Origin: Escherichia coli | GTDB taxonomy: Bacteria > Pseudomonadota > Gammaproteobacteria > Enterobacterales > Enterobacteriaceae | DNA length: 64,000 nt | NCBI RefSeq assembly: GCF_022846255.1 | Contig: NZ_AP025682.1 | Direction: 5' to 3' (one strand) | Shown here: positions 18,221 to 34,892 of the stretch, piece by piece | How the letters are laid out: every line of letters begins with the position of its first letter | How positions within the stretch are numbered: the stretch's first letter is position 1 | Translations under genes and position numbers: made by a program | The notes under the pieces: generated by a model | Database searches by the model: none | The model's input: only the letters and a program-made list of their open reading frames with translations | Told to the model about the DNA's origin: nothing

Positions 18221-20080
18221 ATGAGCAAAGGAACGACCAGCCAGGATGCCCCGTTCGGGACATTATTGGGCTACGCCCCAGGTGGGGTAGCAATCTACTC
18301 TTCAGATTACAGTTCTCTCGATCCGCAGGAATACGAAGATGACGCCGTATTCCGTAGCTATATCGACGATGAATATATGGGCCACAAATGGCAATGCGTT
18401 GAATTTGCTCGCCGTTTTCTCTTTCTGAACTACGGTGTAGTCTTCACTGACGTGGGTATGGCATGGGAGATTTTCTCACTGCGCTTCCTGCGTGAAGTGG
18501 TCAATGACAACATCCTGCCATTGCAGGCATTTCCTAACGGTTCGCCGCGTGCACCGGTAGCGGGGGCGCTTCTTATCTGGGATAAAGGCGGTGAATTTAA
18601 AGACACTGGCCATGTCGCCATCATTACCCAATTGCATGGCAACAAAGTCCGTATTGCGGAACAGAACGTGATTCATACCCCGTTGCCGCAAGGGCAACAG
18701 TGGACACGCGAGCTGGAGATGGTGGTCGAAAACGGCGGCTATATCCTGAAAGACACCTTCGATGACACCACTATTCTGGGCTGGATGATCCAGACGGAAG
18801 ATACCGAATACAGCTTGCCACAGCCGGAAATTGCAGGCGAACTGCTGAAAATCAGCGGGGCGCGTCTGGAAAACAAAGGCCAGTTTGACGGTAAATGGCT
18901 GGATGAAAAAGATCCGCTGCAAAACGCCTATGTACAGGCCAACGGTCAGGTGATCAATCAGGATCCGTATCATTACTACACCATTACCGAGAGCGCCGAG
19001 CAGGAGCTGATTAAAGCCACCAACGAGCTGCACCTGATGTATCTTCACGCCACCGACAAGGTGCTGAAAGATGACAACCTGCTGGCGTTGTTCGACATTC
19101 CGAAAATCCTCTGGCCACGTTTGCGTCTCTCCTGGCAGCGTCGCCGTCACCATATGATCACCGGTCGTATGGATTTCTGCATGGATGAACGTGGCCTGAA
19201 AGTCTACGAATACAACGCCGATTCTGCCTCCTGTCATACCGAAGCGGGCTTGATCCTCGAACGTTGGGCGGAGCAGGGCTATAAAGGCAACGGCTTCAAT
19301 CCTGCGGAAGGGCTGATTAACGAACTGGCTGGTGCCTGGAAACACAGTCGCGCGCGTCCGTTTGTCCATATCATGCAGGACAAAGATATTGAAGAGAACT
19401 ATCACGCTCAGTTTATGGAGCAGGCGCTGCAACAGGCGGGCTTTGAAACGCGTATCTTGCGCGGGCTAGATGAACTGGGCTGGGATGCTGCCGGGCAACT
19501 GATTGATGGGGAAGGGCGACTGGTTAACTGTGTGTGGAAAACCTGGGCGTGGGAAACCGCGTTTGATCAGATTCGTGAAGTTAGCGACCGTGAGTTTGCT
19601 GCGGTGCCGATCCGTACCGGTCATCCGCAAAATGAAGTGCGTCTTATCGACGTATTGCTGCGCCCGGAAGTGCTGGTCTTTGAGCCGCTGTGGACGGTGA
19701 TCCCCGGCAACAAAGCGATTCTGCCGATCCTCTGGTCGCTGTTCCCGCACCATCGTTACCTGCTGGATACCGATTTCACTGTTAATGATGAACTGGTGAA
19801 AACCGGCTACGCGGTGAAACCAATTGCCGGTCGCTGTGGTAGCAATATCGACCTCGTCAGCCATCATGAAGAGGTGCTCGATCAGACTAGCGGTAAATTT
19901 GCCGAGCAGAAAAACATCTATCAGCAACTGTGGTGTTTGCCGAAAGTGGACGGTAAATACATTCAGGTATGTACTTTCACCGTTGGCGGCAACTACGGTG
20001 GGACGTGTTTGCGCGGTGATGAATCACTGGTCATCAAAAAAGAGAGTGATATTGAACCGTTAATTGTGGTGAAAGAGTAA
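18221..20080 (+). CDS. gss: Bifunctional glutathionylspermidine synthetase/amidase, 619 aa
   Basis: MSKGTTSQDAPFGTLLGYAPGGV N-terminus; N-terminal CHAP amidase and C-terminal ATP-grasp-like region. Confidence 0.93.
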   Translation: MSKGTTSQDAPFGTLLGYAPGGVAIYSSDYSSLDPQEYEDDAVFRSYIDDEYMGHKWQCVEFARRFLFLNYGVVFTDVGMAWEIFSLRFLREVVNDNILPLQAFPNGSPRAPVAGALLIWDKGGEFKDTGHVAIITQLHGNKVRIAEQNVIHTPLPQGQQWTRELEMVVENGGYILKDTFDDTTILGWMIQTEDTEYSLPQPEIAGELLKISGARLENKGQFDGKWLDEKDPLQNAYVQANGQVINQDPYHYYTITESAEQELIKATNELHLMYLHATDKVLKDDNLLALFDIPKILWPRLRLSWQRRRHHMITGRMDFCMDERGLKVYEYNADSASCHTEAGLILERWAEQGYKGNGFNPAEGLINELAGAWKHSRARPFVHIMQDKDIEENYHAQFMEQALQQAGFETRILRGLDELGWDAAGQLIDGEGRLVNCVWKTWAWETAFDQIREVSDREFAAVPIRTGHPQNEVRLIDVLLRPEVLVFEPLWTVIPGNKAILPILWSLFPHHRYLLDTDFTVNDELVKTGYAVKPIAGRCGSNIDLVSHHEEVLDQTSGKFAEQKNIYQQLWCLPKVDGKYIQVCTFTVGGNYGGTCLRGDESLVIKKESDIEPLIVVKE

Positions 20081-20095
20081 TACATGTTGTAGCAA

Positions 20096-20130
20096 CCCCG
20101 TACTGATTATGAAGAATAATCAGTACGGGG
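20096..20130. terminator. Strong hairpin terminator after gss
   Basis: 15-bp perfect stem ccccgtactgattat / ataatcagtacgggg, 5-nt loop. Confidence 0.65.
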
Positions 20131-20371
20131 ATTAATCAAAATATTCAATATTTATATATTTCAATATTTATTCATTTCATATATGAATATATTAACAAGT
20201 GAAATACCTGTGTTTTGATTATTTCTAAAGGTTTTGAATGAAGGCTTATTGTCTGATACACAAGAAATAACACGCTTTTTATCGTTAAAAAATGATATTT
20301 CACTTTGCCCACGCCGTGAAAGTCACTGATAATGCCTCCGTTCGTAAATTCAAAATGGCGTAATCTAATAT

Positions 20372-21871
20372 ATGCTAAATTTATTTGTTGGCCTTGATAT
20401 ATATACGGGGCTTTTGTTATTACTTGCTCTGGCATTTGTGTTGTTCTATGAAGCAATCAATGGTTTTCATGACACGGCGAATGCGGTGGCAACCGTTATT
20501 TATACCCGTGCCATGCAACCACAGCTTGCTGTGGTCATGGCGGCATTTTTTAACTTTTTTGGCGTATTGCTTGGCGGGCTTAGCGTTGCCTATGCCATCG
20601 TCCATATGTTGCCAACCGATTTGTTGCTGAATATGGGGTCAACCCACGGTCTGGCGATGGTCTTTTCCATGCTGCTGGCGGCGATTATCTGGAACCTGGG
20701 AACGTGGTTCTTTGGTTTACCGGCCTCCAGTTCGCACACTTTGATTGGTGCGATTATCGGCATTGGTTTAACCAACGCGCTGTTAAATGGTTCGTCGGTG
20801 ATGGATGCGTTAAACCTGCGCGAAGTCACCAAGATTTTCTCTTCACTCATTGTCTCTCCCATCGTGGGGCTGGTGATTGCGGGGGGGCTAATTTTTCTGC
20901 TACGCCGTTTCTGGAGTGGGACGAAAAAGCGTGACCGTATTCATCGTATTCCTGAAGATCGCAAAAAGAAAAAAGGCAAACGTAAGCCGCCATTCTGGAC
21001 GCGTATTGCCCTCATTGTTTCCGCTGCGGGCGTGGCGTTTTCGCACGGCGCGAACGACGGGCAGAAAGGAATTGGTCTGGTGATGCTGGTGCTGGTGGGG
21101 ATTGCTCCCGCCGGGTTTGTCGTCAATATGAATGCGTCCGGCTATGAAATTACCCGTACCCGCGATGCCGTCACCAACTTCGAACACTACCTGCAACAGC
21201 ATCCTGAACTGCCGCAGAAGTTGATTACGATGGAACCTCCATTGCCTGCGACATCGACTGATGGCACGCAAGTAACAGAGTTTCACTGTCATCCGGCAAA
21301 TACCTTTGATGCGATTGCGCGCGTTAAAACGATGCTGCCAGGCAATATGGAAAGTTACGAGCCGTTAAGCGTGAGTCAGCGCAGCCAGCTGCGCCGCATT
21401 ATGCTGTGCATCTCTGATACCTCCGCGAAGCTGGCGAAACTGCCAGGCGTCAGTAAAGAAGACCAGAACCTGCTGAAAAAACTGCGCAGCGATATGTTAA
21501 GCACCATTGAGTACGCACCGGTATGGATCATCATGGCGGTAGCACTGGCGCTCGGCATCGGCACCATGATTGGCTGGCGTCGTGTAGCGATGACCATCGG
21601 TGAGAAGATTGGTAAGCGCGGCATGACGTATGCGCAAGGCATGGCGGCACAAATGACGGCGGCAGTGTCTATCGGCCTTGCCAGTTATATTGGGATGCCC
21701 GTCTCCACAACACACGTACTCTCGTCTGCAGTAGCAGGGACGATGGTGGTGGACGGCGGTGGGTTACAGCGTAAAACGGTAACCAGCATCCTGATGGCGT
21801 GGGTGTTTACTTTACCGGCGGCGATTTTTCTTTCTGGTGGGTTGTACTGGATAGCATTGCAGTTGATTTAA
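20372..21871 (+). CDS. pitB: Low-affinity inorganic phosphate transporter (PiT family), 499 aa
   Basis: ORF-track protein; polytopic; length and neighbours (gss, yghT) match E. coli pitB. Confidence 0.92.
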
Positions 21872-21919: not shown

Positions 21920-22612
21920 CTAGTGATAACCACGCGCGGTCATAAAATCCGTAATCGCTTTTTCTGCATCAACCAGCACCTTTTCCAGTGGCTGATTGGC
22001 GTCGATATCAACCAGTTGTGCACCACCAAAGGTTAACTGTGGCGTTATGGCAATCTTCCTCGCCAGCGATTCCCGTTTATGGTCGGGTTTACGCGCGCAG
22101 GCAACTTCAAGGTCAACATTGAGTTTGATGACCAGATCGGGCTTGTGGCTCGCCATCCAGTGAAATGCTTTACGTTCCTGACTTGCCAGCCATGAGACAA
22201 AACGACCACCTTCAACGTTAGGCGGAAACACCGTACCATCATAAGCGCCAGGAATCTGGTCCTGCGGATAACGGTCGGTTAAAACAATTAACCCGCGACG
22301 ACGACAGGCAAGCATATGACGAAAGCGCAGTAAGCGACGGGCGACAAACGCTGTAATTACCAGCGCCGGAACTGGTCCAGGCAATTTTTTTGCTGTTTTT
22401 ACCTGATTTCGTTCAATTGTTTTATGTAAGGATTTTCCCATCAACGGTAATTTTGTCACTGCACGACCGACATTTCCGGCCTGTTTTCCTAAATGAACTC
22501 TTTCGGCAGCACCATATTTTTCGACAACGGTAATAAGATGTTCACACACCGTTGACTTGCCTGAACCATCGCTACCAATAACGGCAATTAATGGAGGTAT
22601 TATTGACTGCAT
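21920..22612 (-). CDS. yghT: P-loop NTPase of unknown function (paralogue of yghS/yghR), 230 aa
   Basis: Walker [10 protein letters not shown]; shared TDRYPQ and ARKPDH motifs with yghS and yghR. Confidence 0.85.
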
Positions 22613-22786
22613 GAATATATCCTTAAATTTAAATATCCATCCAAAATATTTATTTGGTTAATATGTTTTTGATGAAAGCGTAATTCAGGTCAATGTCACA
22701 ATTAACCATTGTCACAATAAGGTTGAACGGATATTCTGAGCACGGACCACGTAATATTCAATACATTATTTGCTGCCGGGTTTTTC

Positions 22787-23500
22787 GTGAATCAACGTAA
22801 TATGTCAATAATTAATTCCACGCCAGTGCGTGTTATTGCCATTGTAGGATGTGATGGTTCAGGTAAATCGACCCTCACGGCAAGCCTGGTAAATGAACTG
22901 GCAGCAACAATGCCAACAGAACACATTTATCTCGGGCAATCGTCCGGGCGAATTGGCGAATGGATTTCACAGCTCCCTGTTATTGGCGCACCTTTTGGGC
23001 GTTATCTGCGAAGTAAAGCGGCACATGTGCACGAAAAGCCCTCCACACCACCTGGCAATATTACTGCGCTGGTTATCTATCTGCTTTCCTGCTGGCGGGC
23101 GTACAAGTTTCGCAAAATGTTGTGTAAAAGCCAGCAAGGCTATCTGCTCATCACCGACCGCTACCCGCAGGTTGAAGTGCCGGGTTTTCGCTTTGATGGC
23201 CCGCAATTGGCAAAAACCACGGGCGGTAACGGTTGGATAAAAATGTTAAGGCAGCGCGAGCTGAAGCTGTACCAATGGATGGAGTCTTATTTGCCCGTAT
23301 TGTTGATTCGTCTTGGCATTGATGAACAAACCGCGTTTGCGCGTAAACCTGACCACCAACTGGCGGCGTTACAGGAAAAAATCGCCGTTACGCCGCAACT
23401 GACATTTAATGGCGCAAAGATCCTTGAACTGGATGGTCGGCAACCCGCCGATGAAATTCTGCAAGCGTCACTACGCGCAATTCACGCCGCGCTTTCCTGA
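22787..23500 (+). CDS. yghS: P-loop NTPase of unknown function, 237 aa
   Basis: GTG start; Walker A GCDGSGKST; TDRYPQ and ARKPDH motifs. Confidence 0.85.
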   Translation: MNQRNMSIINSTPVRVIAIVGCDGSGKSTLTASLVNELAATMPTEHIYLGQSSGRIGEWISQLPVIGAPFGRYLRSKAAHVHEKPSTPPGNITALVIYLLSCWRAYKFRKMLCKSQQGYLLITDRYPQVEVPGFRFDGPQLAKTTGGNGWIKMLRQRELKLYQWMESYLPVLLIRLGIDEQTAFARKPDHQLAALQEKIAVTPQLTFNGAKILELDGRQPADEILQASLRAIHAALS

Positions 23501-23531
23501 TCACCAAAATGGATAGGGGATGATTTAACGA

Positions 23532-24290
23532 ATGGACGCACTACAAACACAAACTGTTAATAGTACAACCGCGCCGCAGCCCAACTACATTCCGGGGCTG
23601 ATTGCGGTGGTCGGGTGTGATGGCACCGGTAAATCCACACTGACCACCGACCTGGTGAAATCGCTGCAACAACACTGGCAAACCGAGCGGCGCTATCTGG
23701 GGCTGCTCTCGGGCGAAGACGGCGACAAAATCAAACGATTGCCGTTGGTTGGCGTCTGGCTCGAACGGCGACTGGCGGCCAAATCCTCGAAAACCCAAAG
23801 CATGAAAACCAAATCTCCAGCGCTATGGGCGGCGGTGATTATGTACTGCTTCTCGCTGCGAAGAATGGCGAATCTACGCAAGGTTCAGCGACTGGCGCAA
23901 AGTGGCGTTCTGGTGGTCAGCGATCGCTTCCCGCAGGCTGAAATTTCGGGCTTTTATTATGACGGACCGGGGATCGGCGTCGAACGTGCGACCGGGAAAA
24001 TCAGCATGTTTCTGGCGCAGCGCGAACGGCGTTTATACCAACAAATGGCGCAACACCGTCCTGAATTAATCATTCGTTTGGGGATTGATATTGATACTGC
24101 CATCTCCCGCAAGCCTGACCATGACTATGCCGAGCTGCAGGACAAAATCGGCGTCATGTCGACGATTGGCTATAACGGCACAAAAATTCTTGAGATTGAT
24201 TCCAGAGCGCCCTACAGCGAAGTGCTGGAACAGGCACAGAAGGCGGTTTCTCTGGTTGCCATCGTTTCTGACCGCCGAAGTTTAACTTAA
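23532..24290 (+). CDS. yghR: P-loop NTPase of unknown function, 252 aa
   Basis: Walker A GCDGTGKST; SDRFPQ and SRKPDH motifs. Confidence 0.85.
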   Translation: MDALQTQTVNSTTAPQPNYIPGLIAVVGCDGTGKSTLTTDLVKSLQQHWQTERRYLGLLSGEDGDKIKRLPLVGVWLERRLAAKSSKTQSMKTKSPALWAAVIMYCFSLRRMANLRKVQRLAQSGVLVVSDRFPQAEISGFYYDGPGIGVERATGKISMFLAQRERRLYQQMAQHRPELIIRLGIDIDTAISRKPDHDYAELQDKIGVMSTIGYNGTKILEIDSRAPYSEVLEQAQKAVSLVAIVSDRRSLT

Positions 24291-24335
24291 GGCTGGCGGG
24301 ATACTTTTTACTATCAACGATAAGGTCAGGCTGAA

Positions 24336-25685
24336 TTGGCGGGTTTTAACATCAAACATTGGTTTGCAGATGGCGCGTTTCGCACCATTATTCGCAATAG
24401 CGCCTGGTTAGGCTCCAGTAATGTCGTGAGCGCTTTGCTGGGTCTGTTGGCGCTCTCGTGTGCCGGTAAAGGGATGACGCCCGCCATGTTTGGCGTACTG
24501 GTGATTGTACAATCGTACGCCAAGTCGATCAGCGATTTTATTAAGTTTCAGACATGGCAGCTGGTGGTTCAGTACGGAACACCAGCATTAACCAACAATA
24601 ATCCGCAGCAATTTCGCAATGTCGTCTCATTTTCCTTCTCGCTGGATATCGTCAGCGGCGCGGTGGCGATTGTCGGCGGCATTGCCTTACTCCCTTTTCT
24701 TTCCCATTCATTAGGTCTGGATGACCAAAGCTTTTGGCTGGCAGCGCTGTATTGCACGCTCATTCCTTCAATGGCTTCCTCCACGCCGACCGGCATTCTG
24801 CGTGCGGTAGATCGCTTCGATCTAATTGCTGTACAGCAAGCGACGAAACCTTTTCTGCGCGCAGCGGGGAGCGTCGTTGCCTGGTATTTTGACTTTGGTT
24901 TTGCGGGTTTTGTTATTGCCTGGTACGCCTCGAATCTTGTTGGCGGCACCATGTACTGGTGGTTTGCCGCACGTGAATTACGCCGCAGAAATATCCATAA
25001 CGCGTTCAAATTGAATCTGTTTGAGTCTGCCCGACACATCAAAGGCGCGTGGAGTTTTGTCTGGTCAACCAACATTGCCCATTCCATCTGGTCGGCGCGT
25101 AATTCGTGCAGCACAGTGTTGGTGGGGATCGTGTTAGGACCCGCTGCCGCCGGGTTATTTAAAATCGCCATGACATTCTTCGACGCCGCCGGAACGCCAG
25201 CGGGTTTACTGGGCAAAAGTTTTTACCCAGAGGTGATGCGTTTAGATCCGCGTACCACCAGACCGTGGTTGTTAGGCGTGAAGTCAGGTTTACTGGCGGG
25301 CGGAATCGGTATTCTGGTGGCGCTCGCGGTGTTGATTGTCGGCAAGCCGCTCATTTCGCTGGTGTTTGGCGTTAAGTATCTCGAAGCGTATGACCTGATT
25401 CAGGTGATGCTGGGCGCAATTGTGATCTCGATGCTGGGCTTCCCTCAGGAGTCATTGCTATTGATGGCGGGAAAACAGCGCGCTTTTCTCGTGGCGCAAA
25501 CCATCGCCTCAATCGGCTACATCGTATTGCTGTTCATGTTCTGTCATCTGTTTGGCGTGCTGGGAGCAGCGTTTGCTTATTTCGGCGGTCAATGTCTGGA
25601 TGTGGTGCTTTCGCTAATTCCGACCTTAAAGGCATTTTTTCAGCGCCATTCCTTGCTTTATAACGCAGCCGGAGAGAAATCCTGA
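24336..25685 (+). CDS. yghQ: Polytopic membrane protein, putative MOP-superfamily lipid/polysaccharide flippase; start uncertain (TTG 24336 or ATG 24474/24486)
   Basis: Long hydrophobic ORF with about 10-12 predicted TM segments; stop overlaps next gene start (ATGA). Confidence 0.7.
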   Translation: MAGFNIKHWFADGAFRTIIRNSAWLGSSNVVSALLGLLALSCAGKGMTPAMFGVLVIVQSYAKSISDFIKFQTWQLVVQYGTPALTNNNPQQFRNVVSFSFSLDIVSGAVAIVGGIALLPFLSHSLGLDDQSFWLAALYCTLIPSMASSTPTGILRAVDRFDLIAVQQATKPFLRAAGSVVAWYFDFGFAGFVIAWYASNLVGGTMYWWFAARELRRRNIHNAFKLNLFESARHIKGAWSFVWSTNIAHSIWSARNSCSTVLVGIVLGPAAAGLFKIAMTFFDAAGTPAGLLGKSFYPEVMRLDPRTTRPWLLGVKSGLLAGGIGILVALAVLIVGKPLISLVFGVKYLEAYDLIQVMLGAIVISMLGFPQESLLLMAGKQRAFLVAQTIASIGYIVLLFMFCHLFGVLGAAFAYFGGQCLDVVLSLIPTLKAFFQRHSLLYNAAGEKS

Positions 25686-26521
25686 TGATGAGAAAATATT
25701 TCCCGCTAGAGGCGAGCGAGCGTCTATTTGTTGCGATTGAAGAAGATGATGTCGTTGATGCACAGGTCAGTTTGCCGCCGACTATCGCACTAAGTTGTAC
25801 CACCGAAATCATCCATGATAATTACGCGTTATGCCTGCAATTCTGGCTCAATGGCGTCAATCGCCAGGAGTTACTGCGTTTAATATGCAAACAGGCCAAA
25901 GGCGATGAGCTGACTGCTGATGAGCGCAAACAATTTAAATACATGCGAGCGCGCTACAAGCACCTGCGTTTTGCGCAACGGCTGTATTTAAAGAAGCATC
26001 AGGCCGGATTTTTATTCGGCAAAACGACCGTTTTTTTGGGGCGTTTTCAGGATGGCTTTCGTAACGGTAAGAAAAATATTGTGTCGTTTTACAGTAACCT
26101 GTTACGTGTTTATTTGAGCTCCCCTGTCTGGTGGCTGGTGAACTATTCATTGCGCCATAGCCAGTTAGAAACCGTGAACGGTTTTATCGCCTACCGCCAG
26201 AAGCAAATGTACATCCTGAAAGAGATTATTGCTAAACCGCAACTAACTGGCAGGGAATTTCATGATGTGCGAAAAATCATCAGCCAGCAGGTTTCTTATT
26301 ACGACACCTTAAGATCGCTTGATCCTGAAAATAAAGAGGCGTTACTGATTTCCCGTTTTCTCGCCGCCATTAATGGTCTGATGGGGGATAAGCACGACGA
26401 CATGGTGGCGGATGATATGGAGAACCGCCGGTCATATGATGCACCGGTGGCGCTGGATAGCGATATTCGCCAGCGTTTAGAACTGCTTATTTCGCGTTTC
26501 CCACTCTATCCGGAGCAATAA
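25685..26521 (+). CDS. Hypothetical cytoplasmic protein, 278 aa, no family recognised
   Basis: ORF with GGAGAGA RBS 8 nt upstream; translationally coupled to yghQ and the next ORF. Confidence 0.65.
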   Translation: MMRKYFPLEASERLFVAIEEDDVVDAQVSLPPTIALSCTTEIIHDNYALCLQFWLNGVNRQELLRLICKQAKGDELTADERKQFKYMRARYKHLRFAQRLYLKKHQAGFLFGKTTVFLGRFQDGFRNGKKNIVSFYSNLLRVYLSSPVWWLVNYSLRHSQLETVNGFIAYRQKQMYILKEIIAKPQLTGREFHDVRKIISQQVSYYDTLRSLDPENKEALLISRFLAAINGLMGDKHDDMVADDMENRRSYDAPVALDSDIRQRLELLISRFPLYPEQ

Positions 26522-27081
26522 TGCCATCTCGTTGGATTTTCGCTCTGATCATCGCACTCTTAGCGCCAGGCGCGGCGGCACACAATTTCGTCACTGGCAA
26601 AACGGTTACCCCTGTTTATATCCAGGAAGGCGGCGAGCTGCTTCTGAATAGCGACGACGAAATTCACTACCAAAAGTGGAACAGCACACAATTGACGGGA
26701 AAAGTTCGCATTATTCAGTACATCGCCGGGCGTAAGTCGGCGAAGAAAAAGAACTCACTGTTAATTAAAGCGGTTGAAGCGGCAAACTTTCCGCAGGATC
26801 GTTTTCAGCCCACCACCATTGTGAACACTGATGATGCCATCTTTGGTACCGGCTATTTTGTCGTTGGCAAAATCGAAAAAAATAAACGCCGCTATCCGTG
26901 GGCGCAATTCGTTATTGACGGCAATGGACAGGGACGCGTTGCCTGGCACTTGCAGGAGCAGAGTTCAACCATTCTGGTGCTGAATAAAACCGGGCAAATT
27001 CAGTGGGCAAAGGACGGCAGCCTGACGCCGGAAGAGGTAGATCATGTCATTGCGCTGGCGCAGAAGCTGATCAATGAATAA
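26521..27081 (+). CDS. Hypothetical exported protein with N-terminal signal peptide, 186 aa
   Basis: N-terminus MPSRWIFALIIALLAPGAAAHNF resembles a Sec signal; ATG overlaps preceding stop (TAATG). Confidence 0.65.
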   Translation: MPSRWIFALIIALLAPGAAAHNFVTGKTVTPVYIQEGGELLLNSDDEIHYQKWNSTQLTGKVRIIQYIAGRKSAKKKNSLLIKAVEAANFPQDRFQPTTIVNTDDAIFGTGYFVVGKIEKNKRRYPWAQFVIDGNGQGRVAWHLQEQSSTILVLNKTGQIQWAKDGSLTPEEVDHVIALAQKLINE

Positions 27082-27110
27082 AAATTCAAAGGATTGAGGG
27101 CGTTAGTGAG

Positions 27111-28181
27111 ATGAAGCTGGTTGAACACTACATCATGCGTGGTACGCGCCGTCTGGTGCTGATTATCGTCGGTTTTCTGATCTTTATTTTCGCCAGCTAC
27201 TCCGCACAGCGTTATCTGACCGAAGCGGCAAATGGGACATTAGCTCTTGATGTTGTGCTGGATATCGTTTTCTACAAAGTGCTGATTGCACTGGAGATGT
27301 TGTTACCTGTTGGACTGTATGTGTCAGTTGGCGTGACGCTAGGGCAGATGTATACCGACTCGGAAATTACCGCTATCTCTGCGGCGGGGGGCAGTCCGGG
27401 ACGCTTGTACAAAGCCGTTCTTTATCTGGCGATACCGCTAAGTATTTTTGTCACCCTTCTGTCGATGTATGGTCGTCCGTGGGCTTATGCGCAGATTTAT
27501 CAACTGGAGCAACAGTCACAGTCGGAGCTGGATGTTCGCCAGTTGCGGGCAAAGAAATTTAACACTAACGATAACGGACGAATGATCCTTTCGCAGACGG
27601 TTGATCAGGATAATAATCGCCTGACTGACGCGCTGATTTATACTTCTACTGCTAATCGAACCCGCATTTTCCGCGCCCGTTCGGTTGATGTGGTTGACCC
27701 ATCACCTGAGAAACCGACCGTTATGTTGCATAACGGGACCGCCTATCTTCTCGATCATCAGGGGCGTGACGACAACGAACAGATCTACCGTAATCTGCAA
27801 TTACATCTGAATCCGCTGGATCAAAGCCCTAACGTCAAACGCAAAGCAAAATCGGTCACGGAGCTGGCGCGCTCCGCCTTTCCTGCCGATCATGCCGAAC
27901 TGCAATGGCGACAAAGCCGTGGCCTGACAGCATTGTTGATGGCGCTGCTGGCCATTTCATTAAGTCGGGTAAAACCGCGGCAAGGGCGATTTTCAACGTT
28001 ATTGCCACTGACGTTGCTGTTTGTTGCCATTTTTTATGGCGGCGACGTCTGCCGTACGCTGGTGGCTAACGGCGCGATTCCCCTCATTCCTGGTTTGTGG
28101 TTAGTACCCGGACTCATGCTAATGGGCCTGCTGATGTTGGTCGCACGCGACTTCTCTTTGCTGCAGAAATTTTCCCGATGA
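27111..28181 (+). CDS. LptF/LptG-family (YjgP/YjgQ) permease-like membrane protein, 356 aa
   Basis: 3 TM + about 150-aa hydrophilic domain + 3 TM topology read from translation; N-terminus resembles LptF. Confidence 0.7.
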   Translation: MKLVEHYIMRGTRRLVLIIVGFLIFIFASYSAQRYLTEAANGTLALDVVLDIVFYKVLIALEMLLPVGLYVSVGVTLGQMYTDSEITAISAAGGSPGRLYKAVLYLAIPLSIFVTLLSMYGRPWAYAQIYQLEQQSQSELDVRQLRAKKFNTNDNGRMILSQTVDQDNNRLTDALIYTSTANRTRIFRARSVDVVDPSPEKPTVMLHNGTAYLLDHQGRDDNEQIYRNLQLHLNPLDQSPNVKRKAKSVTELARSAFPADHAELQWRQSRGLTALLMALLAISLSRVKPRQGRFSTLLPLTLLFVAIFYGGDVCRTLVANGAIPLIPGLWLVPGLMLMGLLMLVARDFSLLQKFSR

Positions 28182-29257
28182 ATGTTTTCAGTCGCTATTT
28201 AATCCGTCATCTCTTTCTCGGTTTTGCCGCCGCCGCAGGGCTATTGCTGCCGCTTTTTACCACCTTCAACCTGATTAACGAACTGGATGATGTCAGCCCG
28301 GGTGGTTATCGCTGGACTCAGGCGGTGCTGGTGGTGCTGATGACCTTACCGCGCACACTGGTCGAACTTTCGCCGTTTATCGCCTTATTGGGAGGGATTG
28401 TCGGCCTGGGGCAGTTATCGAAAAACAGTGAGCTTACCGCCATTCGCAGCACGGGGTTTTCTATCTTCCGTATTGCACTGGTGGCGCTGGTTGCCGGGAT
28501 ATTGTGGACTGTTTCATTAGGCGCGATAGATGAGTGGGTGGCGTCGCCATTGCAGCAACAGGCGCTGCAAATCAAATCGACTGCCACCGCGTTGGGGGAG
28601 GACAATGACATTATCGGCAATATGCTTTGGGCCAGGCGCGGTAATGAATTTGTGACGGTGAAATCGCTGAACGAGCAGGGCCAGCCGGTGGGCGTGGAGA
28701 TTTTTCATTACCGCGACGATCTCTCGCTCGAATCCTACATTTATGCGCGCAGTGCCACCATTGAAGACGATAAAACGTGGATCCTGCATGGTGTGAATTA
28801 TAAAAAATGGTTGAATGGCAAAGAAACGCTGGAAACATTAGATAATCTTGCCTGGCAATCGGCCTTCACCAGTATGAATCTTGAAGAGTTATCGATGCCG
28901 GGGAATACTTTTTCTGTCCGTCAGCTTAATCATTACATCCATTATTTGCAGGATACCGGGCAACCCAGCAGCGAATACCACCTTGCACTGTGGGAAAAAC
29001 TGGGGCAACCGATCTTGACTCTGGCGATGATTTTGCTGGCTGTGCCGTTTACCTTTAGTGTCCCGCGCTCGCCAGGGATGGGTAGCCGTCTCGCTGTAGG
29101 CGTCATCGTTGGTTTACTCACCTGGATCAGCTATCAAATCATGGTCAATCTGGGATTGCTATTTGCGTTGAGCGCACCTGTTACCGCGCTCGGTTTACCG
29201 GTAGCGTTTGTGCTGGTGGCGTTGAGCCTGGTGTATTGGTATGACAGACAACATTAA
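28178..29257 (+). CDS. LptF/LptG-family (YjgP/YjgQ) permease-like membrane protein, 359 aa
   Basis: ORF-track 386 aa trimmed to MNVFSRYLIRHLF; ATG overlaps upstream stop (ATGA); same 3+3 TM topology. Confidence 0.7.
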   Translation: MNVFSRYLIRHLFLGFAAAAGLLLPLFTTFNLINELDDVSPGGYRWTQAVLVVLMTLPRTLVELSPFIALLGGIVGLGQLSKNSELTAIRSTGFSIFRIALVALVAGILWTVSLGAIDEWVASPLQQQALQIKSTATALGEDNDIIGNMLWARRGNEFVTVKSLNEQGQPVGVEIFHYRDDLSLESYIYARSATIEDDKTWILHGVNYKKWLNGKETLETLDNLAWQSAFTSMNLEELSMPGNTFSVRQLNHYIHYLQDTGQPSSEYHLALWEKLGQPILTLAMILLAVPFTFSVPRSPGMGSRLAVGVIVGLLTWISYQIMVNLGLLFALSAPVTALGLPVAFVLVALSLVYWYDRQH

Positions 29258-29288
29258 ACCCGCCGTGGCGCAACACCACGGCGGGTTC
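29257..29288. terminator. Bidirectional terminator hairpin between convergent permease and lipid operons
   Basis: 12-bp perfect stem aacccgccgtgg / ccacggcgggtt with 8-nt loop. Confidence 0.55.
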
Positions 29289-29291
29289 ACA

Positions 29292-30464
29292 TTACTGCTT
29301 CTGAGTAGCAAATGCCTGAATGATGGCATCGATTTGCTCACGACTGTGGGCAGCGTTTACGCTACAGCGCAGCAGCGTGATGCCAGCAGGCGCGGCAGGT
29401 GGCAGGATAAGATTCACATAAACGCCCAGCGAAATAAGCTCGCGCCAGATGCGTAAACCTTCCTCTTTCGAACCGATTATTACTGGCACTACCGGGCTAA
29501 TATGTGAACTTAACTCGTAACCCAGTTTTTGCAGACCGTCATACAGATGGTTGGCGTTATCCATCAGCTTTTGCCGCAGCTCTGGTTGTGAGGCAATGGT
29601 TCTTAACGACGAGCGCACGGTCGCAATGCAGGACGGAGAAGGAGAGGCGGTAAAAATATACGGGCGGCTGCCGTAGCGCAGCACTTCCATCGCTTCCGAA
29701 CCGACAGCAAAACCGCCAATCGAGGCCAGACTTTTACTGAAGGTGCCGACGATAATATCCACGTCGTCTTCAACGCCAACGGCTTCAACCAGTCCGCGCC
29801 CCGTAGCGCCTAACACGCCAAACGAATGTGCTTCATCGACAATCAAATAACCACCGAGACGACGTTTGATATCAACAATTTCTGCCAGCGGCGCAACGTC
29901 ACCGAGCATACTGTAGATGCCTTCAACGATAATAATCGCCTCTTTCGCCCGTTCACCGAGGCGGACCATGCGCCGTTCCAGATCGTTGACGTCATTATGG
30001 CGGAAACGAATAATCTCCGCGCCGCCGAGAGAACAGGCGTCATAAATACTGGCGTGGCTGTCGGCATCCAGTAACACCACGGCGTTATGGTCGGCAAGTG
30101 CGCTGATGACACCTAAATTAGCGGTATAACCGGTTGAAAAAACGATAGCGGTAGGGCGATTGAAAAACTCGGCAATCTCTTTCTCTAACGCCAGATGCGG
30201 CGCATAACTGCCGTTTGCCATACGAGAACCGGTGGTGCCGGTGCCTTGGGCCGCTAACGCTGCCTGACCTTCGCGGATAGCATCATGATTAAAGGTTAAA
30301 CCGAGATAATTATTGGTCCCGGCCAGAATCACTTTTTTATTGCCGATCCGGCCTTCGGTGGCGGAATATACTTCATCAATACAGGTGCCAAATGGTGTTA
30401 ACCCGTTGTCACTAAATTGCAGGCGCTCGCCAGCAAGGCGCGCATATTTATCGTATAGCCCCAT
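29292..30464 (-). CDS. PLP-dependent alpha-oxoamine synthase family acyltransferase (serine palmitoyltransferase / 8-amino-7-oxononanoate synthase-like), 390 aa
   Basis: PLP-lysine motif GTFSKSLAS and DEAHSFG; class-II aminotransferase fold inferred from translation. Confidence 0.8.
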   Translation of the reverse strand: MGLYDKYARLAGERLQFSDNGLTPFGTCIDEVYSATEGRIGNKKVILAGTNNYLGLTFNHDAIREGQAALAAQGTGTTGSRMANGSYAPHLALEKEIAEFFNRPTAIVFSTGYTANLGVISALADHNAVVLLDADSHASIYDACSLGGAEIIRFRHNDVNDLERRMVRLGERAKEAIIIVEGIYSMLGDVAPLAEIVDIKRRLGGYLIVDEAHSFGVLGATGRGLVEAVGVEDDVDIIVGTFSKSLASIGGFAVGSEAMEVLRYGSRPYIFTASPSPSCIATVRSSLRTIASQPELRQKLMDNANHLYDGLQKLGYELSSHISPVVPVIIGSKEEGLRIWRELISLGVYVNLILPPAAPAGITLLRCSVNAAHSREQIDAIIQAFATQKQ

Positions 30465-30712
30465 TATTTATTCTCCAGCCATGGAAGTAGAGTTTCCATT
30501 AATTGCGCAGGGGTTTTGACATCCAGCAGAATATTAATAGGAATGGAAATATCGAATCTGTCTTCCAGCATCATTAAGAGATCCATCACTTTGATCGACT
30601 CCAGGCCAAGATCGTTGACGAGATCGCTGTCGGGCTTAATTTCCACACCGTTTTCGACCAAATCCTGTAAACAGGAAAGGATGTAATCCATTACTATTTC
30701 ACGATTTACCAT
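30464..30712 (-). CDS. Acyl carrier protein, 82 aa
   Basis: Phosphopantetheine-attachment motif DLGLESIKVMDL; small acidic protein; stop overlaps next start. Confidence 0.8.
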   Translation of the reverse strand: MVNREIVMDYILSCLQDLVENGVEIKPDSDLVNDLGLESIKVMDLLMMLEDRFDISIPINILLDVKTPAQLMETLLPWLENK

Positions 30713-30743
30713 AGAAACGTTAACACACCTTTAAACAAGACAA

Positions 30744-31658
30744 TCAAAATAGCCCGTTGCGTAATGCGTGTTCCAGGCTAATCCCGGGAAACCAATTAAT
30801 ATCTTCAGAAATACGGTTATTACTTGCCGACCAGTCGGCATGAGTTAATTCACGGATTTTCGAACGAGTCAGCATCGGTTCTTTACCCGCCAGACGGCTC
30901 AACGCGGTACTGATATCCGCAAGGCAGGTGAGTAGCGGCAGAGGAATACCGACCATCCGCACGGAACCACAGCGGACATCGGCAACAAGCTGTTGGACAC
31001 GTTGCCAGTCATAGCCTCCGGCGACGCCATCGCATAATTCATAGGTTTGCGTCTGTACAGTTTCGGCGCTTAACCACTGACCCACTGCTTGCGCAAAATC
31101 GGTGACGTGAAGAAAAGAGAGCAGTGTCTCTGGCGTGCCAAGTCGTGGCAGCAGACCGCGCAGCATCCAGTCAAACAGCGGTTTTAACTCTTTATCGCCG
31201 GGACCATACACGGCTGTCGGGCGAAAAACGCCCAACGTAATTTCGTCAGCCATTGCAGTCAGCCGTTGTTCGGCGACGTGTTTGGAATTTGCGTACCAGG
31301 AGAGTTCGGGATGGCGCGCCGCCAGCGAAGAGATAAACAGAAAACGTTGGCAAAAGCCGCTCTCTTTTGCCGCTTGCATCAGGCGCAGGCTGCCGTCAAC
31401 GTTGCAGCGGGTAAAAATCTCTTCTTTGTGCCCGCGCACTTGCCCGGCGCAATGGACCACCGCGCTGGCTCCGGCAACCAGTTCGCTAAGCGAATGTGTA
31501 TCTTCCAGCGAACCGCGCACCCAAGTGAGATTATCATTGACGTGAGCGCGGGCAGTACGCGTCAATGCGCGAACGTGAAAGCCGCGGGCGAGCAGGTTAT
31601 CAATAATATATTTACCGATAAACCCGGTAGCGCCCGTCACCGCGACAGTTTGATTCAT
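30744..31658 (-). CDS. NAD(P)-dependent epimerase/dehydratase-family reductase (extended SDR), 304 aa
   Basis: ORF-track 374 aa trimmed to MNQTVAVTGATGFIGKY (Rossmann GxxGxxG); ATG overlaps upstream stop (ATGA). Confidence 0.78.
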   Translation of the reverse strand: MNQTVAVTGATGFIGKYIIDNLLARGFHVRALTRTARAHVNDNLTWVRGSLEDTHSLSELVAGASAVVHCAGQVRGHKEEIFTRCNVDGSLRLMQAAKESGFCQRFLFISSLAARHPELSWYANSKHVAEQRLTAMADEITLGVFRPTAVYGPGDKELKPLFDWMLRGLLPRLGTPETLLSFLHVTDFAQAVGQWLSAETVQTQTYELCDGVAGGYDWQRVQQLVADVRCGSVRMVGIPLPLLTCLADISTALSRLAGKEPMLTRSKIRELTHADWSASNNRISEDINWFPGISLEHALRNGLF

Positions 31659-33379
31659 GCCAGGGATTCCTGCACATGAAGACTGGCAGCATAAGCCTTC
31701 TGATAACGTTTTTTCGCTTCCGCACGGGCAGGCTTGCCGGAGGATGTTCGGGGAATACTGTGGGGCGGCAACAGATCGATATCCGCGGTAACGCCAAATT
31801 CGCTTTGGATCCGAGCTGCCAGCGCGTGGATAAGCTGCCCGCGACGTTCTTCGTCGCTGATCCGACACTGGATCTGCAAAATGATTTTTTCCTGGGCGGT
31901 AACAAAAGCAATCGCATCGCCAGAATGAATTTCCGGCTCCTGTTCCGCAATGTATTCAATATCCTGCGGCCAGATATTACGGCCACGAATAATAATCAGA
32001 TCTTTAATGCGTCCGGTGACATACAGATAACCGTCCAGCAGATAACCAAGGTCTCCGGTGTCTAACCAGCCCGTCGCGGCAATCTCGTCTTGCGAAACCT
32101 GGTCGCCAAAGTACCCGCTCATCAGGCTGGGGCCGGAGATGCAAATATGGCCTACCACACGTTCCGCGACAGGTATATCTGCTTCATTGCGGATTTCAAT
32201 GCCATGTTCCGGCAACGCTTTACCGCAGTTGACGAAAGTCGATACGGCGCGTGTTTCAGCACCCGGCGCGACGGCTTTACCCTGGTATTCGAGGATGTCG
32301 CGATCCACTTCGTTAACCACAACCCCGCAGGCTTCATCAGAGAAGCTGACAGCCAGCGCATTTTCTGCCAGTCCGTAGCACGGCATGAAAGTTTTATCGT
32401 CAAAGTTAACCTGACGGAAACATTCAGCGAATTGATGGAGTTGTTCTGCGGATATGGGTTCTGCGCCAATACCAGCGACGCGCCAGCAGGAAAGATCCAG
32501 TTCAGCGAGATCTTTTTCATTCACGCGGCGCTGGCACAATTCATAGCCAAACGGCGGTGCAACGGAAACGGTGCCACGATTTTTACTGATCAATTTAAGC
32601 CATTGCAGAGGACGCATGGCAAAATCCTGAGTGCGCAAATAATCTACTGAAAGCTGCGTGGCGACGGGGGTCAGGAGAAAGCCGACCAGTCCCATATCAT
32701 GGTAGAAAGGCAGCCAGGAGACGCAGCGGTCGCCAGGGCGTAATTTAATCCCATCGTGGCTTATAGCACGTAGATTAGCCATCACTTCGTGATGGGTGAT
32801 AATGACGCCACGGGGAAAACGGGTGCTGCCGGAGGTGTACTGGAGGTAGGCGATATCGTTTGGAACTGGACGCTGGAGCACAACATCGGCTTCCGGTAAT
32901 GCCTTAAACCAGGCGTGGCTTAAAACATGTAATTCGGGGTTGTTGTTATGCGTCGCGGCATTGACCAGTGGCAACCACTCATCACCAGTGATAATGGCTG
33001 CGGGCTGGCAACTTGCCAGTAAACCCTGCAGTTTGGCGCTCCAGGAATCCCGCTGACCTACGCCCATTGGAATCGCCAACGGGACGGCGACTAAGCCGGC
33101 ATACTGGCAGGCAAAAAAAGCCTCTACAAACCCGCTACTCGTTTCGGCAATCAGCGCCACGCGATCGCCTTTTTTCAGGTTCAGCGATAACAACCTTTTC
33201 GCACCAGCTTCGGCACGCGCTTTTAACGTCTGATATTCCAGTTGATCTTCAAGTTGGCAACGTCTGTCATAAAAATTCATTCCGGCGCTACTCAGAGCGG
33301 CGTAGTCCAAAGCATCAACCAGCGTTGGAAAATCGGCATAGCGCATAGGTAGGGAATGCGTAAAGATTTTATTAGACAT
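31655..33379 (-). CDS. Fatty-acyl-AMP ligase / acyl-ACP synthetase-like adenylating enzyme, about 574 aa
   Basis: AMP-binding motifs YTSGSTRFPRG and GRIKDLIIIRGRNIWPQDIE; start set at ATG 33379 (alternative TTG 33406). Confidence 0.8.
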   Translation of the reverse strand: MSNKIFTHSLPMRYADFPTLVDALDYAALSSAGMNFYDRRCQLEDQLEYQTLKARAEAGAKRLLSLNLKKGDRVALIAETSSGFVEAFFACQYAGLVAVPLAIPMGVGQRDSWSAKLQGLLASCQPAAIITGDEWLPLVNAATHNNNPELHVLSHAWFKALPEADVVLQRPVPNDIAYLQYTSGSTRFPRGVIITHHEVMANLRAISHDGIKLRPGDRCVSWLPFYHDMGLVGFLLTPVATQLSVDYLRTQDFAMRPLQWLKLISKNRGTVSVAPPFGYELCQRRVNEKDLAELDLSCWRVAGIGAEPISAEQLHQFAECFRQVNFDDKTFMPCYGLAENALAVSFSDEACGVVVNEVDRDILEYQGKAVAPGAETRAVSTFVNCGKALPEHGIEIRNEADIPVAERVVGHICISGPSLMSGYFGDQVSQDEIAATGWLDTGDLGYLLDGYLYVTGRIKDLIIIRGRNIWPQDIEYIAEQEPEIHSGDAIAFVTAQEKIILQIQCRISDEERRGQLIHALAARIQSEFGVTADIDLLPPHSIPRTSSGKPARAEAKKRYQKAYAASLHVQESLA

Positions 33380-33749
33380 ATACACCACGAAAAAATTGGA
33401 TATCAAAAATAAAATGACAATAATGCGGTGGATTATATAGGCATAAAAGATAAATGAGATAGTATTTTCATCGGTGTGAAAATGAACATTGATTTAAATA
33501 ATAAGTTTGGCTTTTTTGTTTTTATTGTGAATGATATTTAATTTGTGAATATATTAAGAAGGAGCCTTGTCCGGTCGCCTTAAATCGACAAGAGGCATTG
33601 TGGCGCTTCTGTGTAGTCTTTGACCTTATCGTAATCATTAATAAATACTATTTATTCTTTGTTTGTATTCATTGGGTTGATTATTAAGATGCCGTTCGTT
33701 GCTGTTGCAACCTGTTTTTCACCGTTAATTATTTGTTATCCACAGAGAT

Positions 33750-34892
33750 ATGGAATGCGATCTGCTGATGATTAAAATTGAAAAAGTAATTAATAAAAAA
33801 GACCTTAAGGCATTTATCGCTTTTCCGTCATCACTTTATCCCGATGATCCAAACTGGATACCCCCTTTATTCATTGAACGTAGCGAGCATTTGTCTGCGA
33901 AGAATCCGGGGACGGACCATATCATCTGGCAGGCGTGGGTGGCAAAAAAAGCGGGGCAGATAGTTGGGCGTATTACCGCGCAAATAGATACCTTGCACCG
34001 TGAGCGTTACGGTGAAGATACCGGTCATTTCGGAATGATTGATGCCATTGATGATCCGCAGGTTTTTGCCGCGTTGTTTGGCGCAGCGGAGGCGTGGTTG
34101 AAGTCACAAGGTGCAAGTAAGATCAGCGGGCCTTTCAGCCTGAATATCAATCAGGAAAGCGGATTACTGATTGAAGGTTTTGACACACCTCCCTGTGCGA
34201 TGATGCCACACGGCAAACCGTGGTATGCCGCGCATATTGAACAACTGGGTTATCACAAAGGCATTGATTTACTGGCGTGGTGGATGCAGCGAACCGATCT
34301 CACTTTCTCTCCGGCGCTAAAAAAACTGATGGATCAGGTGCGCAAAAAAGTGACCATTCGCTGCATCAATCGCCAGCGGTTTGCCGAAGAGATGCAGATC
34401 CTGCGTGAGATTTTCAATTCTGGCTGGCAGCACAACTGGGGATTTGTGCCGTTTACCGAACATGAATTCGCGACCATGGGCGATCAACTTAAATATCTGG
34501 TGCCGGACGATATGATCTACATCGCTGAGATTGATTCTGCACCCTGCGCGTTTATTGTTGGCTTGCCGAACATCAACGAGGCGATTACCGATCTGAACGG
34601 ATCGCTCTTTCCCTTCGGCTGGGCAAAATTGCTGTGGCGTTTGAAAGTCAGCGGTGTGCGAACTGCGCGAGTGCCGCTGATGGGCGTGCGGGACGAGTAT
34701 CAGTTCAGCCGCATCGGCCCGGTGATTGCGCTGTTATTGATTGAAGCCTTACGCGATCCGTTTGCCCGCCGGAAGATCGATGCGCTGGAAATGTCATGGA
34801 TCCTCGAAACCAATACAGGCATGAATAACATGCTGGAACGCATTGGGGCGGAGCCGTACAAGCGTTACCGATTGTATGAAAAGCAGATTTGA
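33750..34892 (+). CDS. yghO: Uncharacterised protein, possible N-acyltransferase; start uncertain (ATG 33750 or 33768), 380 aa
   Basis: ORF divergent from the lipid operon and convergent with glcC; symbol assigned by position relative to glcC from memory. Confidence 0.6.
   Translation: MECDLLMIKIEKVINKKDLKAFIAFPSSLYPDDPNWIPPLFIERSEHLSAKNPGTDHIIWQAWVAKKAGQIVGRITAQIDTLHRERYGEDTGHFGMIDAIDDPQVFAALFGAAEAWLKSQGASKISGPFSLNINQESGLLIEGFDTPPCAMMPHGKPWYAAHIEQLGYHKGIDLLAWWMQRTDLTFSPALKKLMDQVRKKVTIRCINRQRFAEEMQILREIFNSGWQHNWGFVPFTEHEFATMGDQLKYLVPDDMIYIAEIDSAPCAFIVGLPNINEAITDLNGSLFPFGWAKLLWRLKVSGVRTARVPLMGVRDEYQFSRIGPVIALLLIEALRDPFARRKIDALEMSWILETNTGMNNMLERIGAEPYKRYRLYEKQI

Follow-up and report, generated by a model that had tools for sequence, protein, structure and literature searches.

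The yghT/yghS locus and its surrounding cluster

The stretch of Escherichia coli DNA analysed here, which we refer to as the window, is 64 kb long and carries a pair of divergently transcribed genes annotated by RefSeq as yghT (21920–22612, − strand) and yghS (22787–23500, + strand). yghS has a GTG start and is the first gene of the downstream operon, with yghR (23532–24290, +) and yghQ (24336–25685, +) following it, and the phosphate transporter gene pitB (20372–21871, +) adjoins the locus on the other side of yghT. The spacer between yghT and yghS (22613–22786) is 174 bp long and has 32% GC, compared with 52% for the window; the original prediction likewise describes an AT-rich region between the two divergent genes. 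An 801-bp query around the direct repeat in this spacer matched 4734 of 5426 complete E. coli genomes at 95–100% identity, with yghT and yghS annotated. In a species-level genome scan the distribution of YghS was patchy, covering Escherichia and Hafnia and otherwise just a few Betaproteobacteria-type MAGs with another gene layout; a protein search returned many further Enterobacterales relatives at 65–90% identity. We found that the divergent yghT/yghS pair is retained in all Enterobacterales loci fetched, and that CGTGA(A/G)TCAA, the context of the yghS start, is kept in most of the orthologues examined.

The products of these genes carry uneven annotations. YghT and YghS are named ‘dTMP kinase’ in RefSeq, and for YghR the label is simply ‘ATP-binding’ or ‘hypothetical protein’. 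All three (21923–24287) score below threshold against the Pfam family Thymidylate_kin (18–26 bits versus a cut-off of 27), and the matches of YghS and YghT lie mostly over the P-loop; the name ‘dTMP kinase’ is probably an over-annotation for these two proteins. In some E. coli, such as the genome GCA_043186385.1 (our locus L029, 2501–3238), a single 245-aa gene replaces yghS and yghR, with yghQ directly after it, and this gene looks like a yghS/yghR hybrid that arose via deletion between the two paralogues. Several E. coli proteins of 240–245 aa resembling its product, at ~74% identity, were present in the protein search.

yghT, yghS, yghR and yghQ lie within a larger cluster (21920–34892) whose gene content looks like that of a bacterial locus for making and exporting sphingolipids. 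yghQ is a Polysacc_synt flippase-like gene, and downstream of it are genes for a 278-aa protein (25685–26521) and for a YtfJ-family protein (26521–27081), then second copies of lptF (27111–28181) and lptG (ending at 29257). Convergent with the genes from yghS to lptG are spt, encoding serine palmitoyltransferase (29292–30464), the genes for an acyl carrier protein and an NAD epimerase/dehydratase (reductase-like), and the gene for a fatty acyl-AMP ligase (31655–33379). yghO (33750–34892) lies at the end of the cluster. In K-12, the middle of the cluster has been lost through an IS5 insertion. The whole cluster is also carried on large plasmids, namely an IncFIB conjugative plasmid of K. michiganensis (L032) and a plasmid of P. 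veronii (L033), where its content is a yghO-like acyltransferase, ligase, reductase, acp, spt, yghT, yghS, yghR, flippase and lptF/lptG; on the K. michiganensis plasmid, a LysR regulator and a diacylglycerol kinase gene adjoin it. Together, plasmid carriage and the patchy distribution among species point to horizontal spread of the cluster.

The direct repeat in the spacer

Within the spacer are two copies of a short motif, TGTCACAATTA at 22694–22704 and TGTCACAATAA at 22710–22720, both lying exactly where the original prediction had placed them. The copies share a core 9-mer, TGTCACAAT, with a start-to-start period of 16 bp, and a repeat finder extends the pair to 12 nt (CAATGTCACAAT at 22691–22702 and CATTGTCACAAT at 22707–22718, 92% identical). 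Exact 9-mers repeated within 30 bp number 11 in the window versus 5.5 ± 2.3 in dinucleotide shuffles, and several such repeats are thus to be met in any 64-kb scan; the probability of such a close 9-mer repeat inside the 174-bp spacer is ~0.03. When up to one mismatch is allowed, the repeat 11-mer occurs four times in the window against an expectation of 1.85, a count reached by 13 of 100 shuffles, and elsewhere in the window we found no occurrence of the motif beyond expectation. The repeat is real, yet by itself it is not beyond chance. A 43-bp stretch around it is identical in 4512 of the 4676 E. coli genomes carrying it, which only reflects the shallow depth of E. coli as a species. The repeat sequence was not found in the literature searched.

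The 16-bp period corresponds to 1.5 helical turns, which places the two copies on opposite faces of the helix. Each repeat unit is itself near-palindromic (ATTGT-C-ACAAT), and because of this an inverted repeat, ACAAT-TAACC-ATTGT (22698–22712, centre 22705), is present as well. Since the direct-repeat and inverted-repeat descriptions are indistinguishable from the DNA itself, we turned to a comparison with other species.

Other short repeats occur nearby and in the rest of the cluster. The AT-rich region upstream of pitB (20144–20168) has another exact 9-mer direct repeat, TTCAATATT, likewise with a period of 16 bp, and this pair is one of the window's 11 close repeats. A second direct repeat at the yghS end of the spacer, ACGTAATAT, has copies at 22749–22757 and 22795–22803, 46 bp apart; with one indel allowed it extends to ACGTAATAT(G)TCAATA, and it is Escherichia-specific. 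One of its copies lies just before the −10 remnant of the promoter that we call P1 (below), and the other lies within the first yghS codons. The divergent spacer between the fatty acyl-AMP ligase gene and yghO (33380–33749) contains two copies of TTGTGA (33525 and 33543) at a spacing of 18 bp, and has the 9-mer TCACAATAA in common with copy 2 of the repeat. Same-strand TTGTGA-type pairs occur in the window only in these two divergent spacers. A shared regulon of the two spacers was considered and rejected, as the second TTGTGA copy is TTATGA in two other E. coli lineages and the sharing of k-mers between the repeat region and the rest of the window was at chance. The stretch 33380–33750 is 100% identical to that of the type strain, E. 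coli DSM 30083 = ATCC 11775, and is 95–99% identical in most other E. coli.

Spacer conservation and the predicted promoters

We compared DNA from E. albertii, Kosakonia, Pseudocitrobacter, Shimwellia, Serratia, Citrobacter amalonaticus, Pluralibacter, Pantoea, Erwinia, Rahnella and two more contigs, along with the two plasmid-borne clusters and a Hafnia-like variant that a metagenome scan recovered with the start-codon region, and not the repeat, as its anchor. The spacers fall into two clades. Clade A (Escherichia, Hafnia, Citrobacter amalonaticus, Pseudocitrobacter, Shimwellia and Pluralibacter) has spacers of ~170–190 bp that are alignable with that of E. coli. The spacers of clade B (Serratia, Pantoea, Kosakonia, Erwinia, Rahnella, the contig L030 and the K. 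michiganensis and P. veronii plasmids) are of another type, in most cases longer than those of clade A. We found the repeat in none of the clade B spacers, and the motif was absent from both spacers of the K. michiganensis and P. veronii plasmid clusters. We then aligned 13 orthologous clade A spacers and scored conservation as the agreement of each E. coli spacer position with six non-Escherichia sequences, the two Hafnia sequences being counted as one.

Across the whole spacer (22613–22786) the background conservation was 0.57. The best 11-bp window was ATATTCTGAGC (22731–22741, 0.85) and the second best CATTGTCACAA (22707–22717, 0.82), and the frames of the repeat ranked 49th and 33rd of the 164 11-bp windows. 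Conservation was divided within each copy. In copy 1, TGT (22694–22696) scored 0.33 and CACAATTA (22697–22704) scored 0.79; in copy 2, TGTCAC (22710–22715) scored 0.93 and AATAA (22716–22720) scored 0.42, below background. That copy 1 TGT and copy 2 AATAA score so low indicates that the bases making the copies alike are free to vary. As judged from the alignment, the constrained bases are two different, adjacent elements and not the repeat unit.

The sequence of copy 1 in relatives is consistent with this. It reads TGCCACAAT in E. albertii, GCCACAAT in Hafnia, CGACAAT in Citrobacter and TGATATT in Pseudocitrobacter. The 9-bp identity is confined to E. coli and close Escherichia; because E. albertii, Hafnia and Citrobacter differ in copy 1, it was created within Escherichia by one or two substitutions. 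The path would have led from AAGCCACAAT, as in Hafnia, through ATGCCACAAT, as in E. albertii, to ATGTCACAAT in E. coli, and the identity could have arisen easily given that the unit ATTGT-C-ACAAT is near-palindromic. Taken as a whole, the comparison suggests a coincidental repeat of recent origin, limited to Escherichia, and not a regulator site in two parts.

These results bear directly on the idea that a single regulator, such as a response regulator, controls both yghT and yghS by binding the two TGTCACAAT(T/A)A copies as tandem half-sites. Such a site would account for a repeat that is exact over 9 bp and identical in 4512 of 4676 E. coli genomes with the locus, and its location between divergent genes, at about −40 to −50 from the predicted yghS start and about −55 to −80 from the predicted yghT start, would suit it. 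PhoB half-sites have TGTCA as their core, and pitB lies nearby. However, the 16-bp period is unlike the 10–11 or 21–22 bp of known tandem-site regulators (OmpR/PhoB-type), and the Pho-box 18-mer pattern, CTGTCAT-N4-CTGTCAT, matches nothing in 22613–22786 even with up to three mismatches. The repeat unit is also unconserved outside Escherichia, relatives with the same divergent pair and longer spacers are wholly without it, and the look-alike TTGTGA pair in the cluster's other divergent spacer is unconserved even within E. coli. We consider tandem half-sites very improbable, and this model is the weakest of the readings.

The promoter of yghT does not appear to involve the repeat. Its predicted core lies at ~22636–22672 on the − strand, with a predicted −10 box, TATTTT (22643–22648), that matches the −10 position in relatives, and the repeat is 55–80 bp upstream of the predicted yghT start, outside this core promoter. 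Use of the repeat region on the minus strand for yghT was rejected, as TTGTGA and TTGACC have no usable −10 box 16–18 bp downstream. In this analysis we found no pointers to control of both yghT and yghS by the repeat. Thus, of the original prediction that a two-copy site controls both arms, what stands is that this is regulatory DNA in a divergent promoter region, part of it under cross-genus purifying selection; the two-copy site itself is not supported by the comparison, given an unconserved repeat unit, the 16-bp period, a copy 2 that coincides with a predicted −35 box and a predicted yghT promoter that lies apart from the repeat.

On the yghS side, a consensus scan of 22450–22950 returned a sole promoter-like site, TTGTCA, 17 bp, TATTCT, on the + strand, which we designated P2. 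Its −35 hexamer, TTGTCA (22709–22714), matches TTGACA at 5/6 positions, and its −10 hexamer, TATTCT (22732–22737), matches TATAAT at 4/6 with A2 and T6 present; this 9/12 match to consensus counts against the site, as chance alone would yield 1.4 sites of this kind in the 500-bp stretch scanned. The −10 hexamer is the best-conserved block of the yghT/yghS spacer (0.97) and the −35 hexamer scores 0.90, and the 17 bp between them (22715–22731) score 0.52, at background. TTGTCA is located at −78 from the GTG in Escherichia, Hafnia and Pseudocitrobacter, at −76 in Citrobacter amalonaticus and at −79 in Shimwellia, and the −10 hexamer is at −55 from the start codon (−53 in Citrobacter). The spacer length is 17 bp in Escherichia, Hafnia, Citrobacter and Pseudocitrobacter, though its sequence has diverged; Shimwellia has TTGTCA, 16 bp, TATCCT. 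P2 holds the same position in five genera, across which the alignment has no indels between the hexamers. What was seen directly is the sequence with its two hexamers, how far apart they lie and how well they are conserved, and P2 has all that we looked for in the sequence of a sigma-70 promoter, that is a −35 box, a −10 box with A2 and T6, a 17 ± 1 bp spacer and conserved hexamers. Conserved hexamers separated by a spacer of fixed length and free sequence are a classic promoter signature, and on balance we lean towards the view that copy 2 of the repeat overlaps the −35 box of P2, an ordinary predicted sigma-70 promoter of the yghS operon.

From these features we infer use of P2 by RNA polymerase, the position of its transcription start and a role for copy 1. 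Copy 2, whose 5′ half lies within the −35 hexamer, would supply TTGTCA, with TATTCT 17 bp downstream, and transcription would start near 22744 (predicted start ~22743–22745), ~43 nt before the yghS GTG. Copy 1, at about −50 to −40 from this start, would fall in the A/T-rich zone just upstream of the −35 box, where the alpha subunit of RNA polymerase or an auxiliary factor could make contact. The sequence of the copy 1 region varies among genera yet is A/T-rich throughout (AATTA, ATTTA, AAAGA, ATTAA), which is more in keeping with an upstream element that acts through its composition than with base-specific contacts. It also counts against P2 as described that conservation around the −35 box (CATTGTCAC) extends past the hexamer and that CACAATTA, at 0.79, exceeds what a plain A/T-rich upstream element requires.

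Evidence from transcript data and the literature was also considered. No experimental transcription start for yghS or yghT was found in the searchable supplements of genome-wide TSS studies, and in a comparative TSS table pitB, gss and yghU are present and yghS and yghT are absent. That both genes are missing from these data fits a silent locus, and the yghS operon may be silent in the laboratory. No description of P2 was found in the literature searched. An RNA element or DNA hairpin received no support, with no meaningful Rfam match and a fold z-score of −1.45, at which the structure is not significant. An extended −10 reading, in which each copy would supply TGn and CACAAT, was rejected since the position-6 T is C in Hafnia and Citrobacter and so is not conserved.

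An older promoter, P1, is present in most clade B members, where it is strong and well conserved. P1 consists of TTGAAC or TTGATA, 15–18 bp and TACAAT, with its boxes ~55 and 32 nt before the start codon, and TACAAT is found in Serratia, Pantoea, Erwinia, Rahnella, L030 and the K. michiganensis and P. veronii plasmids. It is followed by AG(T)TTTTT, an arrangement conserved from the Pseudomonas veronii plasmid through the Enterobacterales (L015, L018, L021–L023, L030, L032 and L033). In E. coli, P1 has decayed to CTGAGC, 15 bp, TTCAAT (22734–22762, + strand), and TTCAAT (22757–22762), the degenerate remnant of the TACAAT of other genera, is without the A at position 2. Because P1 is degenerate, P2 is the best remaining sigma-70 site in E. 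coli.

P1 nevertheless offers another account of the conserved blocks. The conservation of TATTCT could reflect P1 and not a −10 box of P2, because this block is homologous to the P1 −35 region of distant relatives (ATATCTTGAAC, the clade B stretch that takes in the P1 −35 box and the bases immediately before it). On this account P2 would be absent, the working promoter would be P1 with its −10 box at 22757–22762 and ATATTCTGAGC as its −35 region, and, as part of the same joint reading, CATTGTCAC would be bound, at about −55 to −62, by an activator making up for the weak −35 box. In favour of this, P1 is conserved between the Pseudomonas plasmid and the Enterobacterales and keeps a constant distance to the start codon, and the ATAT(C/T)TTGAAC block of P1-bearing relatives aligns with E. 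coli ATATTCTGAGC. However, the E. coli version lacks the key A at position 2 of its −10 box, has a −35 match of 3/6 and a spacer of 15 bp, and a working P1 would leave the exact 17-bp distance between TTGTCA and TATTCT unexplained. We regard this joint reading as improbable.

Candidate regulators and comparison with known systems

The inverted repeat allows a further reading in which P2 carries an operator. Extended, the dyad is TCACAAT-N5-ATTGTCA (22696–22714, 6/7 arm matches), and its inner half-sites, ACAAT (22698–22702) and ATTGT (22708–22712), have centres 10 bp apart and thus face one side of the helix, as is usual for sites of helix-turn-helix dimers. The dyad, ACAAT-N5-ATTGT or its extended form, would then be a putative operator of a dimeric transcription factor, and the direct repeat a by-product of the near-palindromy of each unit. 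Its centre is at about −39 from the predicted P2 start and it overlaps the −35 box, and such a factor would therefore be a repressor or a class II-type activator. Both arms are intact (5/5) in E. coli, E. albertii, Hafnia paralvei and Citrobacter amalonaticus, the last carrying a perfect GACAAT-N5-ATTGTC, and conservation is 0.79 for CACAATTA and ~0.9 for ATTGTCAC. That yghS is up 3.1-fold on SlyA overexpression and appears in H-NS regulon lists (PMC5797941) suggests that the region is regulated in some way. Set against these points, the arms are broken in as many lineages as they are intact, four in each case: the left arm reads ACATT in the Hafnia-like L026, ATATT in Pseudocitrobacter and ACAAA in Shimwellia, and it is lost in Pluralibacter. 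With up to one mismatch, 2.3 occurrences of the dyad pattern are expected by chance in the window, and the dyad is not significant alone. A second site was searched for in the 64-kb window and none was found, the E. coli cluster has no regulator gene, and the dyad does not fit the CRP, Pho-box or SlyA consensus. We judge a dimer operator here to be rather unlikely.

A more specific form of this idea is that the dyad over the −35 box is a putative operator of a regulator that switches on the silent, horizontally mobile, sphingolipid-like lipid cluster in Escherichia, Hafnia and Citrobacter. The cluster so controlled would comprise yghT; yghS-yghR-yghQ with the lptF/lptG paralogues; and spt, acp and the fatty acyl-AMP ligase gene. 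We hold this regulator, and its reach over that set of genes, to be doubtful and distinctly unlikely.

Motif comparison, which had been proposed as a check on the repeat, yielded nothing beyond chance for CRP, Pho-box or SlyA sites. Sigma-E, sigma-54, the DnaA box, IHF, Fis, ArcA and the lac operator were dismissed by eye against their consensus sequences. Among published data, FlhDC gSELEX gives a low-resolution peak whose predicted site is within the yghT coding sequence, outside the repeat; in the literature searched for regulators, we found nothing beyond this peak and the SlyA/H-NS transcript data.

By itself, P2 matters little, being an ordinary predicted promoter ahead of genes without assigned function. 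In non-K-12 strains, it would head an operon that runs from three P-loop proteins to the flippase-like gene and on to the second lptF and lptG. The position of P2, taken with the decay of the ancestral P1 in Escherichia, would thus provide a defined target for activating the cluster.

Compared with known systems, the region resembles several in part. It is like a Pho box (two TGTCA-type 7-bp repeats with an 11-bp period) in having two direct TGTCAC cores near the predicted −35 box and a phosphate transporter gene alongside, but the period here is 16 bp rather than 11, and pitB has its own upstream region (20000–20372). Each repeat copy contains a perfect TCACA right half of a CRP site (TGTGA-N6-TCACA), but the left halves match only 2/5; both copies match the CRP pattern at the three-mismatch level, at which the window has 181 matches versus 220 expected. 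The 32% GC spacer and a patchy cluster that is plasmid-borne in some hosts recall the AT-rich, H-NS-silenced and SlyA-relieved promoters of acquired genes. This spacer differs from them in having no match to the SlyA consensus TTAGCAAGCTAA, a 12-mer, with up to three mismatches, and the repeat itself is not known to be a motif at which H-NS nucleates. The likeness to a sigma-70 (RpoD) promoter (−35 TTGACA, 17-bp spacer, −10 TATAAT) extends to the hexamers, the spacing, cross-genus conservation and a position upstream of the operon's first gene; predicted P2 differs in its weak −10 box, in the older P1 that overlaps it downstream and in conservation that runs beyond the −35 hexamer. At the level of the whole cluster, the sphingolipid cluster of Caulobacter contains spt, acp, a flippase and LptF2/LptG2 (PMC11324152), and the layout of the E. 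coli cluster is similar, with spt, acp, a flippase-like gene and lptF/lptG.
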